Shown: one piece after another, positions 7,401 through 49,655 of the stretch | How the letters are laid out: every line of letters begins with the position of its first letter | How positions within the stretch are numbered: position 1 is the first letter of the stretch | NCBI GenBank assembly: GCA_964016885.1 | Contig: OZ024740.1 | Span: forward strand, 59,768,001-59,832,000 | Direction of reading: 5' to 3' | Source of the DNA: Eledone cirrhosa | Lineage: Eukaryota | DNA: 64,000 bases | Translations under genes and position numbers: made by a program | The notes under the pieces: model-generated | What the model saw: only the letters and a program-made list of their open reading frames with translations | Database searches by the model: none | Told to the model about the DNA's origin: nothing

Positions 7401-7639
7401 GCAATGAAAGACGAAGCAATGAAAGTCGAAGCAATGAAAGATTGGTTAGCTCAGTTAGAGTGTTTTGCTAATGACACAGATGTTATGGGTTCAATCACAA
7501 TACTGACCAGCTTTCAGTTTTCTACTTTATTTTTATTTCCTTATAATTTCTGGTTTCTCCTCACCCCAAGCAGATAAATCTTTTGCCTTTTACTAAAGGT
7601 TTCCATGGGGAGGAACAATTTAATGAGTCTATAGACTTA

Positions 7640-7858
7640 GGGCAGTCGATTGGCAGTACTGATAGAGTGTTGGACAAAATACTTTGTGGCATAGAATTAT
7701 GGGCCTTTACATTCTGAGTTCAAATCCCTCCGAGGTTAATTTTGCCTTTCATCCTTACGGGGGTCGATAAAATAAAGCACCAGTAATGCACTGGGGTCAA
7801 TTTAATCAATTCCCCTCCTTTGAATTGCTGCCCTTGTGCCTAAAGAAGAAACAATTAT
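7640..7858 (+). mobile_element. tRNA-derived SINE
   Basis: B-box gagttcaaatccc and shared core. Confidence 0.8.
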
Positions 7859-16530: not shown

Positions 16531-16562
<32 letters not shown>

Positions 16563-16564
<2 letters not shown>

Positions 16565-18441
16565 TGGTTACATAACAGTTAGTTCACGAAAGTCCGAAAA
16601 GTTTCTAGTTGATAAGAAAATTAGGATGTTGTGATTCAATCCGGAGCTTTGTAGTTATGTAAGAGGTGTTTCGAGACGTGTGGACAACGTGTGAAGAATT
16701 CATTTCTCGTGTTTAGGCAATCACTATTGCATAATCTCTTTAGAATATTTATTCGTTCATCAATACATAGTCCACACGACGGATTTCCCCTTGCGTATGG
16801 CTTGGACTTAGTGATGGATTTCCATTGAACAGAGTAGTCTTTACTTGAGTCCTTGCGGGACCATACGTGAACGCGAGTTTCGTGGATGAACGTCTGTCCG
16901 GGTACCTAAAGTTCGACTGGTGGTTCAGGAAGCGTTCATTAAATCGGCCCTCCGCCATACCCACATAGGATTTGACTTCCTGTGGTTGATTTGGTCGGTT
17001 GGAAGTGACCACAGCTTCATTAATTACAGCGGGTGTGTTGCATTGCTGTTGAAGGGGACAAGCTTCGGGCTTACGGCAAGAGCACCCTGGTGGGGTGTTG
17101 CCCTTGGGATCGTTTGACAGTGCTGACATATGCGACTTGGCTGGCCTATTTATTTTAGATATATTATGTGTTAGATTCCCGGACTTCCACACGGGAATAT
17201 ACCGCGACGACGGACTGACCTTAGCTTCTACCTTCAATGAGTTAGGATTTAGGATAACAGTAGCTACCAACCTCTCTAGCGTAGATTTCTTAGACATTAA
17301 TTTAGACTTTCGCACACACACCTACAGACCCTTCCATAAGCTAAACAAAAATCTCAATTACATTCACAAGGACTCATGCCACCCTCCCACTGTTTTTAGA
17401 AACTTCGTAAATAATATCAGTACTAGAATCTCAAACCTCTCCTCTAATAAGGCTATCTTTGACAGGGCGGCACCCTACTATAAGACGGCGTTAGCTAACA
17501 GCGGCTTCTCGCAACCTATCACTTATTCTCCCACTATCAACAACAGCAAAGAAAGCGTAACAATAGACAAACTATCTGGTTCTCTCCTCCCTTCTCACTC
17601 AACGTTAAAACCAATATAGGCAAAAAATTCCTAGCCCTCTTAGATAGACACTTTCCCATACGTCATAAATACCGCTCCATCTTTAACCGACACAAAGTAA
17701 AACTAGGATACTCCTGCGCTAAGAACATGAAGGCCCACATCACCAACAGCCCTAAGAGCAACACCCCACCAGGGCGCTCTTGCCGTAAGCCCGAAGCTTG
17801 TCCCCTTCAACAGCAATGCAACACACCCGCTGTAATTTATGAAGCTGTGGTTACTTCCAACCGACCAAATCAACCACAGGAGGTCAAATCCACGAAACTC
17901 GCGAGCCACGTATGGTCCCGCAAGGACTCAAGTATAGACTACTCCATTCAATGGAAAGCCATCACTAAGTACAAGCCATACGCAAGGGGAAATCCGTCAT
18001 GTGGACTACGTATTGATGAACGAATAAATATTCTAAAGAGATTATGCAATAGTGATTGCCTAAACACGAGAAATGAGTTCTTCACACGTTGTCCACACGT
18101 CTCGAAACACCTCTTACATAACTACAAAGCTCCGGATTGAATCACAACAACTTCCTAATTTTCTTATCAACTAGAAACTTTTCGGACTTTCGCAGTTATC
18201 TCCCTTACACCTCTCGCACGCTTTCTTGTATTGCCTGTGTGGAGTGACGGTTTCTGCGCATGCGCGTTCGTACGGTTGTCCTTCCTGTTCCGTATAACCA
18301 TGTCCATTACGAGCTGAGGATCCGCTAAGGTGAAACAATTGTTATCGGTATGGTGAACTAACTGTTGTGTAACCACTTCTACCTAACTCGTCCCATGGAC
18401 TGAGTGCTCTACTACTACGGATATTACCTTCCAGTGTTCTA

Positions 18442-18443
<2 letters not shown>
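16563..18443 (+). mobile_element. Penelope-like element, 5'-truncated, with inverted 5' arm (16563-17104)
   Basis: RT motifs GSFDSADICDLAG, GIYRDDGL, DFLDINLD (17105-17619); GIY-YIG region 17727-18140; inserted in (TA)n. Confidence 0.9.
18310..18347 (+). ncRNA. Minimal type I hammerhead ribozyme in PLE terminal repeat
   Basis: cgag CTGAGGA t-cc-gctaa-gg-t GAAA caattg TT atcg (one stem I mismatch). Confidence 0.7.
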
Positions 18444-18494
<51 letters not shown>

Positions 18495-25530: not shown

Positions 25531-25573
<43 letters not shown>

Positions 25574-25655
25574 GTTATTCCGGGTTGAATCGGAGGTAAC
25601 CACAGTAAGTAAGGTACTCAATACATTGCAGAGTATAAAAGTTTTAATATAGATG

Positions 25656-25706
25656 AGATTCTACAGGACTAGAACTGTTTCATTCTTTAGAAATCATCAG
25701 GAATCT
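25656..25706 (-). ncRNA. Type I hammerhead ribozyme
   Basis: Reverse complement of 26049-26099. Confidence 0.8.
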
Positions 25707-26048
25707 GGGTATCAAAAAATAAATATGGTATTTATAGGTCTCTACAAGTGGTAGGAGAGGGTGGGGAGTGGGATGGGTGTAGGTCATTGGTTGATAGAAA
25801 AGGGAATTCATTAAAAGCTAATTCTACAAAGCTATAGTTTATTTTTATTAATTTTTGTTTTGTTTTTTAATTTTTGCTTTTATTTTTATTAATTTAACAA
25901 AAATTAATAAAAATAAACTATAGCTTTGTAGAATTAGCTTTTAATGAATTCCCTTTTCTATCAACCAATGACCTACACCCATCCCACTCCCCACCCTCTC
26001 CTACCACTTATAGAGACCTATAAATACCATATATATTTTTTGATACCC

Positions 26049-26099
26049 AGATTCCTGATGATTTCTAAAGAATGAAACAGTTCTAGTCCTGTAGAATCT
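26049..26099 (+). ncRNA. Type I hammerhead ribozyme
   Basis: agattc CTGATGA t-ttct-aa-agaa-t GAAA cag-ttctagtc-ctg TA gaatct. Confidence 0.8.
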
Positions 26100-26113
26100 C
26101 ATCTATATTAAAA

Positions 26114-26148
<35 letters not shown>

Positions 26149-26627: not shown

Positions 26628-26867
26628 AAAGCACCTACGTACGTTTCGCCCGAATATATATATATAATTGTTTCTACTTTAGGCACAAGGCCAGAAATAT
26701 ATATATATAATATATACATATATACATATAATATATATATATATATATAATATATATATATATATACATAGTGGTGGAACACTGGAAGGTAATATCCGTA
26801 GTGGTAGAGCACTCAGTCCAAGGGACGAGTTAGGTAGAAGTGGTTACACAACAGTTAGTTCACCATA

Positions 26868-26907
26868 CCGAGAACAATTGTTTCACCTTAGCGGATCTTC
26901 AGCTCGG
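26868..26907 (-). ncRNA. Minimal type I hammerhead ribozyme
   Basis: Reverse complement of 27885-27924. Confidence 0.8.
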
Positions 26908-27884
26908 GATGTGTATGGTTATAAGAACAGGAAGGACAACCGTACGAACGCGCATGCGCAGAAACTCGGTCACTTCACGCAGACAATACTAGACTGCGTG
27001 CGAGAGGTGTAAAGGAGATAACTGCGAAAGTCCGGAAAGTTTTTAGGTTGAAAATAAAATTAAAATAAAATAAAAAATAAAATTACAAAGAATCAGTCCG
27101 GAGCCTTGTAGTTATGCAATAGATGTTTGGTGACGTGTGGACAACGTGTGAAAAATTCTCTTCTCGTGTTTAGGCAATCACTATTGCGTAATCTCTTTAG
27201 TCAATACATAAGCCACGCGTCGGATTTCCCCTTGCGTATGGCTTGGACTTAGTGATGGCTTTCCATTGAATGGAGTAGCCTATACTTGAGTCCTTGAGGG
27301 ACCATACGTGGCTCGCGAGTTTCGTGGATGAACGTCTGTCCGGGTATCTGAAGGTAGACTGGTGGTTCAGGAAACGTTCCTTGAATCGGCCCTCCGCCAT
27401 GCCCACATAGGATTTGACCTCCTGTGGTTCGTTTGGTCGGTTGGAAGTGACCACAGCTTCATAGATTATAGCTGGTGAGTTGCATTGCTGTTGAAGGGGG
27501 CAAGCTTCAATGGAAAGCCATCACTAAATCCAAGCCATACGCAAGGGGAAATCCGACGTGTGGCTTATGTATTGACGAACGAATAACTATCCTAAAGAGA
27601 TAACGCAATAGTGATTTCCTAAACACGAGAAGTGAATTTTTCACACGTTGTCCACACGTCACCAAACATCTATTGCATAACTACAAGGCTCCGGACTGAT
27701 TCTTTGTAATTTTATTTTTTATTTTATTTTAATTTTATTTTCAACCTAAAAACTTTCCGGACTTTCGCAGTTATCTCCTTTACACCTCTCGCACGCAGTC
27801 TAGTATTGTCTGCGTGAAGTGACCGAGTTTCTGCGCATGCGCGTTCGTACGGTTGTCCTCCCTGTTCCTATAACCATACACATC

Positions 27885-27924
27885 CCGAGCTGAAGATCCG
27901 CTAAGGTGAAACAATTGTTCTCGG
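27885..27924 (+). ncRNA. Minimal type I hammerhead ribozyme
   Basis: ccgag CTGAAGA t-cc-gctaa-gg-t GAAA caattg TT ctcgg. Confidence 0.8.
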
Positions 27925-27952
27925 TATGGTGAACTAACTGTTGTGTAACCAC

Positions 27953-27988
<36 letters not shown>

Positions 27989-28098
27989 GGCCCTTGATAA
28001 ACCTGTTCTACATCATCCACTCTCATCCCAGGAACAGTATTTGATAGCGCTAGTTTGTGATTTAAATTCAGGAATTTTATATTCTTTGAATGAAAAGA

Positions 28099-28182
28099 AC
28101 CTTCTGACGAGAATCTCTCTTTGCAACGAGGGCCGTATGGCCTACGTTTTATTTTTGGGATTCGAAACCGATCGGTAAAGGT
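28099..28182 (+). ncRNA. Type I hammerhead ribozyme (array unit 1)
   Basis: acctt CTGACGA gaatctc...gggattc GAAA ccgatcgg TA aaggt; predicted cleavage after 28177. Confidence 0.88.
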
Positions 28183-28581
28183 AACTATAGTAGGTAAAGT
28201 CAATTTTTTAAAATTTATTTTGAAACTTTTTCATTATTTACTAAACCTTGTTTATATTTGTTCTGGCTCGTTAATTTATTAACCCGCCATTGAACCACAC
28301 TGGCACTGGGTTGGACAATACATGCGTACCTTGGCGCCTTGTGCGTGAAAGGACGTATTTCATATTACTACTACCTCCACATACGTTGAGAACAAACCGG
28401 GTCATTCCGACTGCTGCTGATAACAGCGGTGGCTAGTTCGACCTACCTCCTTTTGCCTCTATCTTTACTACGGCCTCTGATAAACCTGTTCTACATCATC
28501 CACTCTCATCCCAGGAACAGTATTTGATAGCGCTAGTTTGTGATTTAAATTCAGGAATTTTATATTCTTTGAATGAAAAGA

Positions 28582-28665
28582 ACCTTCTGACGAGAATCTC
28601 TCTTTGCAACGAGGGCCGTATGGCCTACGTTTTATTTTTGGGATTCGAAACCGATCGGTAAAGGT
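28582..28665 (+). ncRNA. Type I hammerhead ribozyme (array unit 2)
   Basis: Same motif, +483 bp. Confidence 0.88.
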
Positions 28666-29064
28666 AACTATAGTAGGTAAAGTCAATTTTTTAAAATTTA
28701 TTTTGAAACTTTTTCATTATTTACTAAACCTTGTTTATATTTGTTCTGGCTCGTTAATTTATTAACCCGCCATTGAACCACACTGGCACTGGGTTGGACA
28801 ATACATGCGTACCTTGGCGCCTTGTGCGTGAAAGGACGTATTTCATATTACTACTACCTCCACATACGTTGAGAACAAACCGGGTCATTCCGACTGCTGC
28901 TGATAACAGCGGTGGCTAGTTCGACCTACCTCCTTTTGCCTCTATCTTTACTACGGCCTCTGATAAACCTGTTCTACATCATCCACTCTCATCCCAGGAA
29001 CAGTATTTGATAGCGCTAGTTTGTGATTTAAATTCAGGAATTTTATATTCTTTGAATGAAAAGA

Positions 29065-29148
29065 ACCTTCTGACGAGAATCTCTCTTTGCAACGAGGGCC
29101 GTATGGCCAACGTTTTATTTTTGGGATTCGAAACCGATCGGTAAAGGT
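29065..29148 (+). ncRNA. Type I hammerhead ribozyme (array unit 3)
   Basis: Same motif, +966 bp. Confidence 0.88.
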
Positions 29149-29547
29149 AACTATAGTAGGTAAAGTCAATTTTTTAAAATTTATTTTGAAACTTTTTCAT
29201 TATTTACTAAACCTTGTTTATATTTGTTCTGGCTCGTTAATTTATTAACCCGCCATTGAACCACACTGGCACTGGGTTGGACAATACATGCGTACCTTGG
29301 CGCCTTGTGCGTGAAAGGACGTATTTCATATTACTACTACCTCCACATACGTTGAGAACAAACCGGGTCATTCCGACTGCTGCTGATAACAGCGGTGGCT
29401 AGTTCGACCTACCTCCTTTTGCCTCTATCTTTACTACGGCCCTTGATAAACCTGTTCTACATCATCCACTCTCATCCCAGGAACAGTATTTGATAGCGCT
29501 AGTTTGTGATTTAAATTCAGGAATTTTATATTCTTTGAATGAAAAGA

Positions 29548-29631
29548 ACCTTCTGACGAGAATCTCTCTTTGCAACGAGGGCCGTATGGCCTACGTTTTA
29601 TTTTTGGGATTCGAAACCGATCGGTAAAGGT
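29548..29631 (+). ncRNA. Type I hammerhead ribozyme (array unit 4)
   Basis: Same motif, +1449 bp. Confidence 0.88.
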
Positions 29632-29698
29632 AACTATAGTAGGTAAAGTCAATTTTTTAAAATTTATTTTGAAACTTTTTCATTATTTACTAAACATT

Positions 29699-29759
<61 letters not shown>

Positions 29760-35428: not shown

Positions 35429-36932
35429 ATAACATTGCCAGGTACCATAACGCTCCTGTCAACTCTACCAGTGATATAACATTGCCAGGTACCATGACGT
35501 TCCTGTCAACTCTACCAGTGATATAACATTGCCAGGTACCATGACGTTCCTGTCAACTCTACCAGTGATATAACATTGCCAGGTACCATGACGTTCCTGT
35601 CAACTCTACCAGTGATATAACATTGCCAGGTACCATGACGTTCCTGTCAACTCTACCAGTGATATAACATTGCCAGGTACCATAACGTTCCTGTCAACTC
35701 TACCAGTGATATAACATTGCCAGGTACCATAACGCTCCTGTCAACTCTACCAGTGATATAACATTGCCAGGTACCATAACGCTCCTGTCAACTCTACCAG
35801 TGATATAACATTGCCAGGTACCATAACGTTCCTGTCAACTCTACCAGTGATATAACATTGCCAGGTACCATGACGTTCCTGTCAACTCTACCAGTGATAT
35901 AACATTGCCAGGTACCATGACGTTCCTGTCAACTCTACCAGTGATATAACATTGCCAGGTACCATAACGTTCCTGTCAACTCTACCAGTGATATAACATT
36001 GCCAGGTACCATAACGCTCCTGTCAACTCTACGAGTGATATAACATTGCCAGGTACCATGACGTTCCTGTCAACTCTACCAGTGATATAACATTGCCAGG
36101 TACCATAACGTTCCTGTCAACTCTACCAGTGATATAACATTGCCAGGTACCATGACGTTCCTGTCAACTCTACCAGTGATATAACATTGCCAGGTACCAT
36201 GACGTTCCTGTCAACTCTACCAGTGATATAACATTGCCAGGTACCATGACGTTCCTGTCAACTCTACCAGTGATATAACATTGCCAGGTACCATGACGTT
36301 CCTGTCAACTCTACCAGTGATATAACATTGCCAGGTACCATGACGTTCCTGTCAACTCTACCAGTGATATAACATTGCCAGGTACCATGACGTTCCTGTC
36401 AACTCTACCAGTGATATAACATTGCCAGGTACCATAACGTTCCTGTCAACTCTACCAGTGATATAACATTGCCAGGTACCATGACGTTCCTGTCAACTCT
36501 ACCAGTGATATAACATTGCCAGGTACCATGACGTTCCTGTCAACTCTACCAGTGATATAACATTGCCAGGTACCATGACGTTCCTGTCAACTCTACCAGT
36601 GATATAACATTGCCAGGTACCATGACGTTCCTGTCAACTCTATCAGTGATATAACATTGCCAGGTACCATGACGTTCCTGTCAACTCTACCAGTGATATA
36701 ACATTGCCAGGTACCATAACGCTCCTGTCAACTCTACCAGTGATATAACATTGCCAGGTACCATAACGCTCCTGTCAACTCTACCAGTGATATAACATTG
36801 CCAGGTACCATGACGTTCCTGTCAACTCTACCAGTGATATAACATTGCCAGGTACCATGACGTTCCTGTCAACTCTACCAGTGATATAACATTGCCAGGT
36901 ACCATGACGTTCCTGTCAACTCTACCAGTGAT
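35429..36932. repeat. 47-bp minisatellite, 32 copies
   Basis: ataacattgccaggtaccat(g/a)acg(t/c)tcctgtcaactctaccagtgat; 1504 bp / 47 = 32. Confidence 0.95.
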
Positions 36933-39388: not shown

Positions 39389-39498
39389 TCCAGTTCCTCA
39401 GTGAAATAACAACCCAAACAGGAACTAGGCACATCAGAGTATTGACAAAATTATACACCTCAACAACATATGTACTTGTCTATACCACACTAATTCGG

Positions 39499-39553
39499 AC
39501 TGCCTGAAGAGGTCACAGCAAAAGATTGCTGTCACCAAAATATATATAGCAGT
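39499..39553 (+). ncRNA. Type I hammerhead relic (G12 to A)
   Basis: actgc CTGAAGA ggtcacagcaa-aaga-ttgctgtcacc AAAA tatata TA gcagt. Confidence 0.7.
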
Positions 39554-39707
39554 AATAAACGAAGCTAAATTTTAAACTTTTGACTTATTTATTTTACTTT
39601 ATTTTACATTACTCCGGAGTAACCAAACCAACCTGCGCACTTCGTCGAGTGCTCCAGCCTGCATACTGAGGTGTGGTATACAACCAACATATACTCAAAA
39701 TCTATAT

Positions 39708-40222
39708 ATACCCATCTATTCATTTATTTATTTATTTATCTACTTATAACAGAAAATATTATATTAGAAACGAATTTTAAACAACTAATAATCGTAAATA
39801 CACGTACTATTAAGATATATACTTAGAATATATTTCCCTCAAATTAACCTTATATGAGTTTTATTCATCTTCTCTTGTTTATTTCTTCTCTCTATCTCTC
39901 TCGTAACATTTTTTATCTTTATCACCTTATATCTTTTCTCTCTCTCTTTCTCCAGTGCCATTTAAATAAACGGTTGTTTTTCAACTATTTACATATCATT
40001 TGCATATTCACACATAAGTTTGAATAATCCCTAATATATTTCCACTATCCAGTGAATTTCCAACCGATAAGGTATGATTTTCATGTGTATGTCTCTATTT
40101 ATAAAACAAACTTTGTATTTTATCTGATGAGGGCGTACCAATGTTGTCTTGGTACCCTTGAAATATATATAATAAAATAAATATGGTTTCATAAATATAG
40201 TTTCCATTTATTTAATATCATT
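39708..40222 (+). mobile_element. PLE family B terminal repeat
   Basis: Inverted near-identical copy of 42275-42792. Confidence 0.8.
40116..40179 (+). ncRNA. Type I hammerhead ribozyme
   Basis: tattttat CTGATGA gggcgtaccaa-tgttgtc-ttggtaccctt GAAA tatata TA ataaaata. Confidence 0.85.
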
Positions 40223-40320
40223 ATATATATATATATATATATATGGTGGCTGCCAACTCGTTTTCGAGTACGGCCACTACTTTATATCCATGTAGGAGAA
40301 CCCCCTACCGATGCGCTGAA

Positions 40321-42203
40321 TTTAACCGTTGATCTATTTAAGATTAAATAGATCAACGGTTAAATTCTCCTACTCAACAACCAAAAACATAAAACAAAAT
40401 ATAAGTGCCTATAATACATATAAATGTAAAAAAACCATGAGTATACCACCAGTACATCAAACTAACCATAATATCTCCTCAGATACAGGATTCACGAAAA
40501 GTTGTAATTGTAGAAACAAGGCAAACTGTCCATTAAAAGGAAATTGCCTTGTTAATAACATAGTATATAAATGTAAAGTTAACACTAAGGACTCAATTTA
40601 TTCATATATAGGAGCTACCTCTAACAAATTTAAGGTAAGATTTAATACCCACAAACATAGTTTTAAAAATGCCGCACTAGCTAAAACAACATCTCTAGCT
40701 GAAATAATTAATAGTTATAAAAAGAAGAATATAGATTATGACCTGACCTGGAGTGTGCTCAAAAGGGCCACCCCTTATCAAAATAGTAGATATGAATGTA
40801 GATTATGTTCCCAAGAACTTTTTGAAATAATGAAATCTAAGGATATCCTATTAAATAAGCGACAGGAATTAATAATATCGTGTAATCATAAACTGAGAAA
40901 AACCTTTAAATATTATAAACCTAATTAATATACACTTTAGAAATTAATATATAAACCATTTTTAATTTAGTTAACCTATAATTAATATTCTACTACTGAT
41001 GAACTACATAATTTTGCTTTCCTTCTTACAACTATCATTTCTTAAAACTGATACCATTAAGTAAACATATATAATGCTTTAACTTCAGGTTATGACTCTA
41101 TGTTCCTTGAAAACTATATATATTTATTATTTCTCACTAATAAATTTAATCCCCCCCCCCAATAATTATATGTATATGTAAGTGTGTGTGTGGGTGTATA
41201 TATATATGTATGTATGTATATGTGCATGTATGTATGTGTATATATGTACACATGTATATATATATATGTGTATATATATATATATATGTGTGTGTATATG
41301 TGTGTGTGTATGTGTATATGTATGTATATATATATATATCTATATATATATATAAGTATATATATATATATTATTTTTATATTCTTTTAATTTCCCCTCA
41401 TCTTTAACAGCACTTTTCAACTGCATCTAACTCTTATTTATCATATCTATATGTATTAGTATAATTTTATCAATATAAATATACCCATCAATTAAATTAA
41501 TTTATATTCTTTTCATAGATGTATTTTTTTCACTAACATCCTTATCGTAAAACTTTAGTCACCTTAGATACTTCTATTGGCATTAATATTTTATAACAGC
41601 AACTGCTTGTATACCTTTTACTGACCACCTGACCTATTTTCACCCCTAAAATAAGCTTCAATTACTACTATTTTACCATTTGGCCAATTATTAACTTTCT
41701 ATTGGTTAATTCTAAACCTCTTACCAAACAGACAGAATATATTAGATCTTTGTTGGTTTTATTCAATGAACAAATATAATTATTTCTGAGGTCAGCATAA
41801 GACCTATTTCTTCCCTAAAATAATCCTTCATTCATAATATTCTTTTCCATCCAAAACTGAAATCTACCTTCCTCTACCCATAATTTAAGGTTCTTCTACT
41901 ACTATATTACTATCTTGACCCTCACTATCTCTCTATTGGTCAATTCAAAACCTGTTCCCAAACAGACCTATTGTATTGAATCTTTGTTTTTTTTTCAATA
42001 AACAAATATCATTATTTCTGAAGACAGCATATATATGTGTAGGTATGTATATTCCCTCTGATAGTTTGTATAAATATTGTACATAGATCTATAGAATATG
42101 CATACAAACTCTAACACATATATATCCTAGAAACGATCGTAAAATGATGCATTTTTTTAATATAAGGAACTGTTTCTTTGTTTATTCATTATTTTATTAA
42201 TTA

Positions 42204-42208
<5 letters not shown>
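40321..42208 (+). mobile_element. Penelope-like element family A, 5'-truncated (GIY-YIG ORF 40329-40928)
   Basis: ORF closely matches 23873-24439; 19-bp fold-back at the 5' end (tttaaccgttgatctattt / aaatagatcaacggttaaa). Confidence 0.9.
42010..42149 (+). ncRNA. Type I hammerhead with 105-nt extended stem II
   Basis: cattattt CTGAAGA [105 nt] GAAA cgatcg TA aaatgatg. Confidence 0.75.
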
Positions 42209-42274
<66 letters not shown>

Positions 42275-42279
<5 letters not shown>

Positions 42280-44763
42280 ATATTAAATAAGTGGAAACTA
42301 TATTTATGAAACCATATTTATTTTATTATATATATTTCAAGGGTACCAAGACAACATTGGTACGCTTTCATCAGATAAAATACAAAGTTTGTTTTATAAA
42401 TAGAGACATACACATGAAAATCATACCTTGTCGGTTGGAAATTCACTGGATAGTGGAAATATATTAGGGATTATTCAAACTTATGTGTGAATATGCAAAT
42501 GAATATGTAAATAATTGAAAAACAACCGTTTATTTAAATGGCACTGGAGAAAGAGAGAGAGAAAAGATATAAGGGGATAAAGATATAAAATATTACGAGA
42601 GAGATAGAGAGAAGAAATAAACAAGAGAAGATGAATAAAACTCATATAACGTTAATTTGAGGGTAATATATTCTAAGTATATATCTTAATAGTACGTGTA
42701 TTTACGATTATTAGTTGTTTAAAATTCGTTTCTAATATAATATTTTCTGTTATAAGTAGATAAATAAATAAATAAATGAATAGATGGGTATATCATGTTA
42801 TAGATAATTGTTTTAATAAGTTATGAGGGATATTGGTTTTGTATTTGATGTAAATATTAAGTTAAATTAAATTAAATTAACTGAGTTAATAAGAATATTT
42901 ATATTTATATATTTCAAAATGGGAAGATACGAAAAAACACCGGTTTAGTTTATTTATTCGTTAGTATGAGACTATTTAGTCAAAATAAGTATAAATGTTG
43001 AAAAATATATTTAGCCAGAATCAGTTAGTGGTTATAAATCTAATAAAACATTGAAAAAATATTCAAAACTTTAGAAAAAAATTTTTTTTAATAATTTATA
43101 AGAGATAAGTAATTTTTAAAAGAGATAAAAAATTAAAGAAATAAAAAATAAAGAATTAAAAATTATTAAGATTAAAATTACAATTAAAATTAAAATTAAA
43201 ATTTAAAACAAATTAGAATTATATATGTATATATTTTATGAAACTTTAAGAAGTGAAATTATAGCAAATGTTATAGATATGATTTAGAGATATCAATATA
43301 TTAAAACCAAGTGGATAAGATTGTTATGGAAATAAGTAGAAATATTATAAGTGTAATTATAATTTATATATAGTTCTAAATGTTGAATTCAGGCGATGTC
43401 TACAAGAATTAAATAAATTCGTTCTTAGATTAATAGAGTTCTTACATTTAAGTATGAAAAAAATGTCCCCAACACACAATTTGCAGAATCTAGATAAAGC
43501 TGTGTTTTGGTACGCGGGTGCTTACGAAATTATTTACCAAGTTAATAAATAGTCCATATTCTTGCATTTTAAGTTCCATATCAGGTTTGAAAGAGAAATT
43601 GAAGATTTTTTATCAAATCTTCGGAAAGAGCATTTGTGATTATTCCAGCGACTTTTAAATTCTGTAGAAGTTGCACCTACATAGTTAAATATATTATCAC
43701 TGGTTTTGACTGTACATTTATAGACCACGTCCTTATCTAAACATTTATTTTGTAAAGGACAGTTTAATTTAATTCTACAGTTACATTTTGCGGAGTTGTT
43801 GTTATTCAGAACGGTACTATTGTGTTGGATACTGCTAGAGATATTACTGCTATTTTGGTTATTTTGGTTAGGGTTTAAATTTCTATTATTGATTCTATTT
43901 ATATTTTGTGCTATGTTCATAGTAGTAGAGTAGGATAGTTTTATAGTATGTCTGTTAAAGATTGAGTGGTATCTGTGGGCTTTAGGAAAACATTTGTCTA
44001 GTGCTTTAAAGAATAGCTTTGCTAAAGGTGTTTTAACGCTTAATGAGAATGGGGGTGAGTACCAAATAATATTTCTAGTTCTATTTCTTCTGTTAGTTTT
44101 AGAGTATAAGTTTGATTGTTTATTATAATTATAATTAATAGTAGGGTTATTTGCCTTATTACTGTTGTCGATGTATTTAATCTTATTTATATAGCCTGTT
44201 CTATTTAAAGCTTCATTATAACATTCTGCCTTATCGTCAAACATGTTTTTTTATTAGCGGAGATGCGTGAAATACGTTGTTGGATAGAATTGACAATAGT
44301 GTTCTTGATAGATCTAGGATGATTAGAGTTAAAACTTACATAGTTTAGATTCTCATTAATTTTATGGAATGGATAGTAGAGCCCTGTGTTAAGGTTTAAT
44401 GTTACGCCTAAAAAGTTAACAATTTTATAGTTATTCTCTATTTCTAACTTAAGGTTGTAGCTATTGAAGATATTATGGATTTTCTTTTTCTATTAATTTC
44501 ACAATTACTATGATTTTCAATTAAAAGCAGCATATCATCACGATATAAACCACGGGTCATCTCTGGTATTTTTCTATGCAGTGTATTATTAATAAATAGC
44601 CCCCACAAGATCCGTTATTTGCGCCGAGTCTGATGATCCCATGGTGATATCAAAATTATTTTTTCTATCGGCTCTAGTCCAGAGATGATTGTTGAATTCA
44701 ATTAAAGTTTTCCGTGCGGTTAAAATGATATGCATTTCTTCGCTATTTATTTTTTTTTTATGT

Positions 44764-46193: not shown

Positions 46194-47142
46194 TACAGGG
46201 TTTTCCGAAAGTCTTGTCACCCCCTACCAAAAGGTAATGCGAAACAGTTTAGGTTCCCATCGCAGTATCGTCCTCTTCGGATGAGCTGGTTTGCAGAATC
46301 TTGCAGTAAAATCATGTCGCACATCCTCCATACTCTTGCCTGAATGCACACGGCCATGTGTCCATACACTTGCAAGCAGCCTCTCTTCCAAACTGTAGGA
46401 GCTCTGAAACAGAAAATGATATTATTATTATTATAAATGTTTAAAAAATGTTCGCTCTACATGGCTGAATACAATAAATGTAATCTGAGTTTTTCGAATA
46501 TTAATAATAATATTCGATTCGTTTGCAATTATGCAAACAAGCCTCATTTTTAAAGCCATGTCAGTAGAATGAGCCCCTCCTTCTTGCTCTTCTGTTGGCA
46601 TGTCAACAGAACGGTAGACACTAATGTTTCTGGGTATTACCCTTCATCAGTACAGCTCACTGTTCACCTGCCAACTGTCAGAGCTAGTGAAAATATATAT
46701 TTTCTATGTTCTGATCGACCTGATTTGCATATTAGCAGACTGGCTGATCAGTCAGATCTGCATATTAGCACTGATCAGCCAGATTTGCATATCAGCAGAC
46801 TGGCCAGTCAGTGACATGCTTTAAAATTGAGGCAGGTGAACAGTGAGCTGTACTGATGAAGGGGGATTCCCAGAAACATTAGTGTCTGCAGTTCTGTTTA
46901 CATGCCAACACAAGAACAAGAATGAGAGACTCATTCTATTGTCATGGCTTTTAAAATGAGGCTTGTTTGCATAATTGCAAACGAATCGAATGTTATTATT
47001 AATATTCGAAAAACTCAAATTACATTTATTATTATTATATATTTTAATTAATGACATTATATATTATATTATTAAAACAAAAAATAATGAAAGTTAAAAC
47101 AATATGTGACAAGGGGTAACAAGACTTTCGGACCACCCTGTA
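46194..47142. mobile_element. Tc1/mariner-ended element with internal fold-back arms
   Basis: tacagggttttccgaaagtcttgtcacccc / ggggtaacaagactttcggaccaccctgta; inner inverted arms about 46470-46672 and 46830-47030; partial second copy at 48930-49480. Confidence 0.75.
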
Positions 47143-47684: not shown

Positions 47685-47976
47685 AAGTTTCAATCTTAAC
47701 GCAATCAAGTAACATTAAAATATCCTCAGAAAATCACTATAAGACCTAGAGAATGCAAGCCCCCCCCCCCCCCCCCCCACACACACACACAAACAAAAAC
47801 ACACTAAGTCATGGTCAATAAATTATAGAAACGAATATACAAGGCAGTTGATTACATCAGCAAAATAAAGCATTAGTCTTTATATATATATATATATATA
47901 TATATAAACAAGGTTTAGCAAATAATGAAAAAGTTTCAAAATAAATTTTAAAAAATTGACTTTACCTACTATAGTT

Positions 47977-48060
47977 ACCTTTACCGATCGGTTTCGAATC
48001 CCAAAAATAAAACGGAGACCATACGGCCTTCGTTGCAAAGAAAGATTCTCGTCAGAAGGT
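47977..48060 (-). ncRNA. Type I hammerhead ribozyme
   Basis: Same motif as 28099-28182. Confidence 0.85.
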
Positions 48061-48459
48061 TCTTTTCATTCAAAGAATATAAAATTCCTGAATTTAAATC
48101 ACAAACTAGCGCTATCAAAACTGTTCCTGGGATGAGAGTGGATGATGTAGAAACAGGTTTATCAAGGGCCGAAGCAAAGATAGAGGCAAAAGGAGGTAGG
48201 TCAAACTAGCCACAGCTATTGCTAGCAGCAGTCAGAACGACCAAATTTGTTCTCAACGTTAGTGGAGGTAGTAGTAATAGGAAATACGTTCCTTCACGCA
48301 CAAGGCGCCAAGGTACGCATGTATTGTCCAACCAAATGCCAGTGTGGTTCAATGGCGGGTTAATAAATTAACGAGCCAGAACAAATATAAACAAGGTTTA
48401 GCAAATAATGAAAAAGTTTCAAAATAAATTTTAAAAAATTGACTTTACCTACTATAGTT

Positions 48460-48543
48460 ACCTTTACCGATCGGTTTCGAATCCCAAAAATAAAACGGAG
48501 ACCATACGGCCTTCGTTGCAAAGAAAGATTCTCGTCAGAAGGT
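48460..48543 (-). ncRNA. Type I hammerhead ribozyme
   Basis: Same motif, 483 bp away. Confidence 0.85.
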
Positions 48544-48864
48544 TCTTTTCATTCAAAGAATATAAAATTGCTGAATTTAAATCACAAACTAGCGCTATCA
48601 AAACTGTTCCTGGGATGAGAGTGGATGATGTAGAAACAGGTTTATCAAGGGCCGAAGCAAAGGATTCGAAACCGATCGGTAAAGGTAACTATAGTAGGTA
48701 AAGTCAATTTTTTAAAATTTATTTTGAAACTTTTTCATTATTTGCTAAACCTTGTTTATATTTGTTCTGGCTCGTTAATTTATTAACCCGCCATTGAACC
48801 ACACTGGCATTTGGTTGGACAATACATGCGTACCTTGGCGCCTTGTGCGTGAAGGAACGTATTT

Positions 48865-48931
<67 letters not shown>

Positions 48932-49655
48932 TTGCTCTACATGGCTGAATACAATAAATGTAATCTGAGTTTTTCGAATATTAATAATAATATTCGATTC
49001 CTTTGCAATTATGCAAACAAGCCTCATTTTTAAAGCCATGTCAGTAGAATGAGCCCCTCGTTCTTCCTCTTGTATTGGCATATAAACAGAACTGCAGACA
49101 CTAATGTTTCTGGGTATCACCCTTCGTCAGTACAGCTCACTGTTCACCTGCCAACTGTCAGAGCTAGTGAAAATATATGATATTTTCTAAAAGTGACTGA
49201 CTGGCCTGATTTGCATATTAGCAGACAAGCTGATCAGTCAGGTCTGCATATTAGCAGATCCACTGATCAGCCAGATTTGCATATCAGCAGACTGGCCAGT
49301 CAGATTCCTGTATACGAGCGATAAATTGCCGGCTTTGCCATATTAAAAAAAAAATTACATGTCAACACAAGAGCAAGAACCAGGGGCTCATTCTACTGAC
49401 ATGGCTTTAAAAATGAGGCTTGTTTGCATAATTGCAAACGAATCGAATATTATTATTAATATTTGAAAAACTCAGATTACACACACATACACACACACAT
49501 ATATATATATATATGGATTGAGGGAGGCGAGGCTGTGTGATTACTGATAATGAGTGGTAGAAGGTAAAGCAACATAAACAAGAGATGGACAGTTTCCCTT
49601 CGTCAGCTGTTTACTACGGATCACGGATGTTTCGGCGCATTATATATATATATAC

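Follow-up and report, generated by a model that had tools for sequence, protein, structure and literature searches.

The window, a 64,000-nucleotide stretch of the Eledone cirrhosa genome, contains two copies of one repeat family with a 483-bp unit, designated A1 and A2. Units were numbered u1 to u483, counted from window position 27988. E1 and E2 denote the two 3' end points at which copies of the family pass into (TA)n. The features of the two copies and their surroundings were as follows.

47902..48869: A2, the whole two-armed, head-to-head insertion within a (TA)n tract
47902..48662, minus strand: E1 arm of A2, about 1.6 units long, running from u476 to u270 of the following unit, with its 3' end at E1
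48662..48869, plus strand: E2 arm of A2 (the inverted 5' piece), u171-378, with its 3' end at E2
47881..47906: (TA)n target tract at the E1 end of A2
48867..48926: (TA)n target tract at the E2 end of A2
48277..48384, minus strand: 108-nt 'tail' between E1 (48385) and E2 (48277), with its inverted-arm copy at 48762-48869
48460..48543, minus strand: type I hammerhead, copy 1, predicted to cut between 48465 and 48464
47977..48060, minus strand: type I hammerhead, copy 2, predicted to cut between 47982 and 47981
47982..48464, minus strand: 483-nt monomer between the two predicted cuts, a putative circular RNA
27986..29706, plus strand: A1, a single-armed array of the same family, from u482 to u270 (3.6 units of 483 bp)
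28104, 28587, 29070 and 29553: the four hammerhead cores of A1, which ends at E1 and has (TA)n on both sides
26772..27959: neighbouring coding Penelope-like element of another family, 5'-truncated and two-armed (E2+E1), with its own hammerhead

A2 comprises two hammerheads flanking one full monomer, which is the minimum for release of a unit RNA. Its inverted piece of 208 nt matches u171-378 of the forward arm of A2 at 100% identity and joins it with a 1-nt overlap; an earlier note on this DNA had recognised a Penelope-style inverted 5' piece in this copy. A1 is inserted in the TA tail of the neighbouring coding element. The same note had given the two copies a common 3' point and 5' starts about 6 nt apart, and both observations were upheld: each copy ends at u270 (47902 in A2, 29706 in A1) and continues into (TA)n, and the starts at u476 and u482 are separated by 6 nt. 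Its statement that variants are common within an array and differ between arrays also held, with 1-4 differences between units inside one array and 7-11 between A1 and A2 over the first 265 columns. A single 35-bp match was all that the flanks of A1 and A2 shared, so the two are independent insertions and not one segmental duplication. The earlier note had divided the unit into a repeat (R, 270 bp) and an internal spacer (I, 213 bp). A second fixed 3' end, absent from its account, lies inside I at about u378, where the inverted piece stops. Contigs of runs X1 and X4 were compared with A2, and those of X1 had loose (TA)n ends both at E1 (48385) and at E2 (48277); X1 may be the assembly's own sample, so these ends do not count as independent support. 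Units 2 and 3 of A1 carry a 2-nt swap (28476-28477, 28959-28960) seen at no other sampled locus, suggesting that local duplication or conversion also occurs.

The hammerhead has a 5-bp stem I, a long stem II with an inner hairpin and a palindromic stem III, and is predicted to cut after u190. All 6 window units matched the type I hammerhead descriptor, and stems II and III were paired in at least 99.7% of cells across 43 monomers. In an Rfam scan of the window the hammerheads fell below gathering thresholds and only a U5 snRNA match passed (7545-7658, plus strand, 57 bits, its 3' part weak; either a gene or a pseudogene). A minisatellite of 47 bp (32 copies, 98% matches) occupies 35429-36932. 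The unit is non-coding: its longest Met-started frame is 25 aa at a GC content of 38.5%, and no ORF was found in the unit or in line with any arm among the fetched loci. The duplex of the stem III palindrome was computed at -18.6 kcal/mol, and four monomers folded as circles gave z values of -2.2 to -2.7 (30 shuffles each).

The earlier note had proposed selection on RNA structure from substitutions in the inner hairpin of stem II. Pairing is indeed kept there, but by one-sided changes (A-U/G-U and G-U/G-C) and not by a compensatory pair. Across the 43 monomers, pairing was kept by 10/11 shared variants and by 10/28 private variants (Fisher p=0.003), but covariation was thin: 1/79 pairs had changed on both sides, fewer than in shuffles, and this pair sits in the hairpin of I. 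Some selection on RNA structure therefore has moderate support, since the structure was drawn from the same sequences and transitions favour wobble pairs. Columns with shared variants numbered 3/79 from the cut to E1, among the least variable parts of the unit, versus 29/106 from E2 to u1. E1 lies a short way 3' of a predicted hairpin, as does E2 in most variants. I is not a spacer, because it holds the putative second priming site as well as the sole double-sided compensatory pair found.

Pattern searches of genome G000 (3.0 Gb) returned 1142 exact matches to the hammerhead core and 557 to the E1-(TA)n end, together with 144 E2-(TA)n ends (with a pattern that covers only part of the subfamilies) and 823 units reading through E1; reversed-pattern controls gave 0 matches. 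The 483-bp repeat is present at hundreds of TA-repeat sites. A total of 156 regions were parsed, comprising A1 and A2 themselves, 14 loci from the best hits and 140 from the pattern lists. These 140 were taken in positional order among the first 100 matches listed per pattern, and covered all loci of the hammerhead and E1 lists and part of the E2 list. After removal of 4 short off-target matches, 164 insertions with 251 arms were retained, a few of them from older subfamilies. In non-LTR retrozymes a target-site duplication, where one occurs, exceeds 4 bp; the insertions here lie in (TA)n, where such a duplication merges indistinguishably with the target.

The 3' ends of the 251 arms fell at E1 (142 arms, u267-274), at E2 (100 arms, u372-384) or elsewhere (9 arms), and 240/242 of the arms ending at E1 or E2 continued into TA. 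The tabulation of end points over genomic copies thus divided the earlier claim of fixed ends: the 3' end is indeed fixed, though at either of two sites 108 nt apart and not at E1 only, and 5' ends are scattered. That the family consists of independent mobile insertions was supported by the two fixed 3' sites across the 164 parsed insertions and by the unrelated flanks of A1 and A2. Tandem units lying within microsatellites might suggest a satellite that spread through segmental duplication or through DNA-level recombination among (TA)n tracts. The unrelated flanks of the window copies speak against this, and the combination of 3' ends that are fixed and 5' ends that vary, together with the asymmetry of the strands, the inverted arms and the conserved core of the ribozyme, points instead to reverse transcription; with the end polarity seen across 164 insertions, this explanation was refuted and is given next to no weight.

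Two-armed, head-to-head insertions made up 93 of the 164. Their ends were E1+E2 in 84, E1+E1 in 2 and E2+E2 in 0, the remaining 7 having an off-site end; an arm of L171 with an internal deletion had been split by the parser and was entered among these 7. Six of the 84 E1+E2 pairs have a very short partner arm. Independent choice of ends would give E1+E2 in at most 50% of pairs, compared with 84/86 observed (p=5e-23), and a tail is accordingly present on exactly one arm in 84/86. In the subset of 22 chosen by the hammerhead only, the counts were 17 E1+E2, 1 E1+E1, 0 E2+E2 and 4 off-site. At one locus of the family (L075), and at L204, L247, L249 and L252, the last 7-10 bases at the priming site are recopied directly, as many as four times, a pattern that resembles telomerase-like slippage when copying begins.

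Sister arms of one insertion were 0.8% apart, against a median of 4.7% to other loci. Sister pairs were closer than this median in 54/55 cases, and 12 were strictly closer than to every other locus, a number held down by young copies that are near-identical. Rare alleles occurred in both sister arms at 3 loci. One template per insertion, as the earlier note had supposed for each array, is supported by this similarity together with 16 mixed cells among 2286 diagnostic cells. Junctions (86 measured) had 0-6 nt of overlap in 65 cases, 8-9 nt in 2 and inserted bases in 19. The longer arm was either one (41 versus 37), and arm lengths were uncorrelated (rho -0.08).

Inverted arms of this kind have been attributed to a single priming event followed by self-priming or fold-back, with nuclease trimming of one end leaving a tail on one arm (Arkhipova et al. 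2013, PMC3846280; Craig et al. 2021, PMC8557442). The near-identity of sister arms agrees with this, and 8/78 junctions were near-palindromic, with starts within 11 nt, versus 3.7 expected (p=0.036), a slight excess through which fold-back may be a minor route. A folded-back arm would be a copy of the other, but neither arm is contained in the other in 31/78 pairs, each having sequence absent from its sister, and some pairs have no overlap at all (e.g. L088, L168, L169); one arm is not a copy of the other in these cases and simple fold-back is excluded there. The starts of the two arms were more than 30 nt apart in 69/78 pairs, and single-armed copies also end at E2 (16/71). The non-contained arms rule out fold-back as the sole source of the inverted arm, and we regard it as an improbable general explanation. 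The alternative that we prefer is that two arms are primed separately, at E1 and at E2 of the same RNA.

For the analysis of 5' ends, end-ascertained arms were used and A1 and A2 were excluded. The 190 arms started at 146 distinct positions. A defined start near u1, which the earlier note had predicted, was not borne out: 5/190 starts fell in u476-u1 versus 3.0 expected (p=0.19), and 11 in u472-u8 versus 6.8 expected (p=0.08). With A1 and A2 counted in, 11/119 E1 arms begin within about 10 nt of u1. Starts in u454-u1 numbered 18 versus 10.1 expected, roughly a twofold excess with an uncorrected p=0.015 in a window picked after the data were seen; this may reflect a start region or a pause of the reverse transcriptase. 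A constant-hazard scan for a 5' hot spot found none at 11 or 31 nt (p=0.11). At 21 nt, stops near the hammerhead cut (u185-203) were in excess, with 23 versus 9.8 expected (scan-corrected p=0.028), which indicates that some templates are linear; six of the u185-203 starts lie at a TA-rich spot that matches the target.

Without a fixed 5' end, R and I are not real modules, and 5' truncation near u1 in a partial tandem is enough to produce the R-I-R pseudo-LTR appearance. The model put forward in the earlier note, an LTR-like mini-element with a fixed 270-bp repeat, a 213-bp internal part and a start near u1, drew on two window copies that begin within 6 nt of each other, and the mild excess of starts in u454-u1 is in its favour. 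It does not accommodate the dispersion of starts over the 190 arms, the small share of E1 arms near u1, a second 3' end inside I or a hammerhead of type I instead of type III. The scattered 5' ends refute the fixed start and the LTR-like modules, and we consider this model extremely improbable. The scattered ends and at least 557 E1 ends genome-wide describe dispersed mobile copies without true LTRs.

More than one unit was present in 95 of the 251 arms, the longest having about 10 units, and both arms exceeded one unit at 10 loci. The predicted hammerhead cut site was read through in 227/250 passes. Arrays were uniform: mixed diagnostic cells amounted to 16/2286 at 56 loci, and within-locus variants comprised 123 singletons versus 4 shared. 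Across 50 loci, 43 distinct monomers were recovered. Read-through of the cut site together with uniform arrays of up to about 10 units favours a circular monomer as template. Divergence across the family combined with uniform arrays suggests a monomer bottleneck followed by re-multiplication, which a circle would give most simply; a circular template has been proposed for retrozymes (Cervera and de la Pena 2014, PMC4209133; PMC7229834). One array pass at L068 (2452-4093) carries several alleles common at other loci and looks mosaic, possibly through a template switch or conversion between subfamilies.

The same helper and paired priming could instead act on a linear, uncut multimeric transcript, with arrays lengthened or homogenised locally afterwards. 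Uncut RNA was the dominant substrate of Poseidon in vitro and cleavage was dispensable (PMC11167929), the cut-site read-through fits a linear template equally well, and neighbouring units share variants at A1 and at L180. A linear template can only shorten arrays, however, and would pass on unit mosaics, whereas mixed cells are rare and the monomer types many. Within-locus variants, moreover, are star-like and not nested as stepwise amplification predicts. We judge a linear template unlikely, though less so than the other alternatives considered here, and retain the circular monomer as the probable template.

Near these loci there are coding elements whose C-terminal nuclease region includes a CxCx5C linker (10 C-terminal regions aligned); a Pfam search found 0 families in 5/5 Penelope-like proteins. 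The Hydra clade is characterised by a C-terminal nuclease with a CxCx5C linker, a hammerhead and a (TA)n target (PMC8557442, section 11), and by that description the coding families here appear to match it in nuclease, linker, hammerheads and TA ends. Two autonomous families, A and B, were represented by many near-identical copies with open frames of 832 aa and about 745 aa. Head-to-head pairs were examined for 20 of about 26 noted (all but the longest and the last few). In 13/13 pairs of family A, one short and one long end were combined, lying mostly 43-52 nt and about 208 nt past the cut, respectively. In family B, with ends at about 49 and 139 nt, 5/7 pairs were short+long, one long+long and one short+short. 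Pairing was therefore heterotypic in 18/20 and homotypic in 2/20, with tails of about 165 nt in family A and 90 nt in family B. E1+E2 pairing was also observed in three further hammerhead families of the fetched DNA for which a linked ORF was not seen (5/5, 3/3 and 3/3) and in the coding neighbour of A1 (1/1). The Penelope dependence suggested in the earlier note gains support from this shared pairing of ends in two co-resident autonomous Hydra-like families.

When the unit was compared by blastn with 60 loci of families A and B over their 3' regions, in 1.5-kb windows that barely reach the hammerhead, no match was obtained. No arm was found joined to an ORF among the fetched loci. In the copies of family A printed (L187, L245-L257), the hammerhead core reads CCGAAGA for CUGANGA and lies about 1.45 kb past the stop codon; this is a position-4 variant that would escape standard descriptors. 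At least 5 other hammerhead-bearing Penelope-type families are present in the window, several of them as inverted two-armed copies in TA tracts and one starting just beyond the TA tract at the E2 end of A2. Elements of this kind were located as follows.

16560-18460, 25571-26119, 26772-27959, ~39390-42800, 46470-47030, 48940-49420 and 62046: other hammerhead-bearing Penelope-type elements

Further tandem hammerhead families were seen at L154:1453-3330, L084:4250-5620, L041:3700-4700 and L133/L170/L034, and their units measure about 470, 310, 480 and 530-570 bp. Just downstream of the ribozyme, two of them resemble the 483-bp family.

Taken together, we place at about 70% the probability that this 483-bp, non-coding, dispersed tandem element with a predicted hammerhead is mobilised by a Penelope-like (Hydra-type) reverse transcriptase-endonuclease that primes twice on one, probably circular, RNA, the circle being the weakest step. 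A copy with at least two hammerheads, such as A2, would be transcribed, cut and ligated into a 483-nt circle; the palindromic stem III would suit a dimeric ribozyme. The helper would nick both strands of the (TA)n target, in which the insertions are observed. The two nicked ends would then prime at E1 and E2 of the same RNA, helped by TA microhomology, and one priming site per subunit of a dimer is plausible. Rolling copying round the circle would yield the observed scattered stops and uniform arrays of up to about 10 units, and the two cDNA 3' ends would be joined by microhomology, in keeping with the observed overlaps of 0-6 nt, and filled in. Where one cDNA only was made, it would join the TA target to give a single-armed copy such as A1. 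We read the pairing of two fixed ends as genomic evidence of twin priming and of mobilisation by a Penelope-type enzyme.

The twin priming of L1, which Ostertag and Kazazian are said to have described in 2001, reportedly has the second target strand prime the same RNA, giving a head-to-head 5' inversion joined by microhomology. In L1 the second site is a variable internal one, located upstream of the first, and the arms are not known to overlap. In the present family, by contrast, the two sites have a fixed separation of 108 nt, and both arms may extend over a common sequence several units in length. TRIMs carry fixed terminal direct repeats at both ends, a PBS and a PPT. Fixed terminal direct repeats and a type III hammerhead were both sought in the 483-bp family and neither was found; the analogy to plant LTR retrozymes or TRIMs drawn in the earlier note did not hold. 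The likeness to plant LTR retrozymes lies in a hammerhead inside a direct repeat and a monomer released between two ribozymes; those elements differ in their type III hammerhead, fixed LTRs, PBS/PPT, 4-bp target duplication and Gypsy helper (10.64898/2026.07.22.740005, PMC7229834).

Metazoan non-LTR retrozymes (Cervera and de la Pena 2020, PMC7229834; Li, Clavereau and Pollet 2026, bioRxiv 10.64898/2026.07.22.740005) are likewise dispersed, non-coding tandem units of less than 50% GC with one type I hammerhead per unit and co-resident Penelope-like elements. The 483-bp unit is above the 150-450 bp range given in PMC7229834 and within the 51-972 bp range given in 10.64898/2026.07.22.740005. The hammerhead here differs in its long stem II and palindromic stem III, and no pLTR relative was found in families A and B (60 loci compared). 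Circular templates and mobilisation by Penelope were proposed for metazoan retrozymes from co-occurrence and pLTR similarity (PMC7229834; 10.64898/2026.07.22.740005), and Li et al. observed cleavage in only 1/9 predicted retrozymes (10.64898/2026.07.22.740005). In the available text of PMC7229834 the word 'inverted' occurs 0 times, and neither there nor in that of 10.64898/2026.07.22.740005 were retrozyme insertion ends, inverted arms or paired 3' sites found described; the supplements of the latter may contain ends. On sequence features, the family is classified as a putative non-LTR retrozyme, that is, a non-autonomous Penelope-type element, and not as an LTR or TRIM analogue.

With Penelope-like elements, and most of all with the Hydra clade, the family shares 5' truncation, partial tandems, a head-to-head inverted 5' copy, a tail on one end, the hammerhead, (TA)n targeting and microhomology junctions (PMC8557442, PMC3846280). 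It differs in having no ORF, and so does not qualify as an autonomous element, and in a tail of 108 nt compared with 30-40 bp reported for Penelope-like elements (PMC8557442, PMC3846280). That one of the inverted pLTRs can carry a tail is known in qualitative terms; this tail has been called optional and ascribed to nuclease resolution or self-priming (PMC8557442, PMC3846280), whereas here it is near-constant and the arms need not overlap. The origin of tandem and inverted Penelope-like insertions has been called undefined (PMC8557442). In the available text of the papers cited, no count of site pairing, argument from non-overlapping arms or such retrozyme ends was found, although some of this may be treated in Arkhipova 2006 and in Evgen'ev and Arkhipova 2005.

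The closest biochemical parallel concerns Poseidon of Anolis, for which both strands were cut and extended in vitro from two internal RNA start sites by a predicted dimer (Frangieh et al. 2024, PMC11167929). The likeness extends to two internal reverse transcription starts bracketing the tail, an AT-rich target and the predicted dimer. The Poseidon sites are adjacent and the same for both strands, and the initiation site is without target homology (PMC11167929), whereas both sites here end in target-matching, TA-like bases. As the Poseidon strands share start sites, strict pairing is not predicted by that system alone, and pairing within insertions was not found reported in the available text of PMC11167929.

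Penelope-type enzymes in general may prime in obligate pairs, acting as a dimer on one RNA at two fixed sites about 65-165 nt apart (the distance being family-specific), with one subunit for each nicked strand. On a ribozyme-derived circle both subunits would roll, giving two uniform multi-unit arms, and the retrozyme would copy the two-site geometry of its helper and not the helper's sequence. We offer this generalisation tentatively, at a little under even odds. The near-strict rule of one site per arm, together with arms that can be free of overlap, separates twin priming from self-priming. A short RNA, two mapped sites and intact candidate helpers of 832 and 745 aa make a direct in vitro test possible. 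The retrozyme has the integration signature of the resident autonomous elements, which provides a mechanistic link between them; if true, obligate paired priming would unite the Penelope tail, the inverted pLTR and retrozyme arrays in one mechanism.
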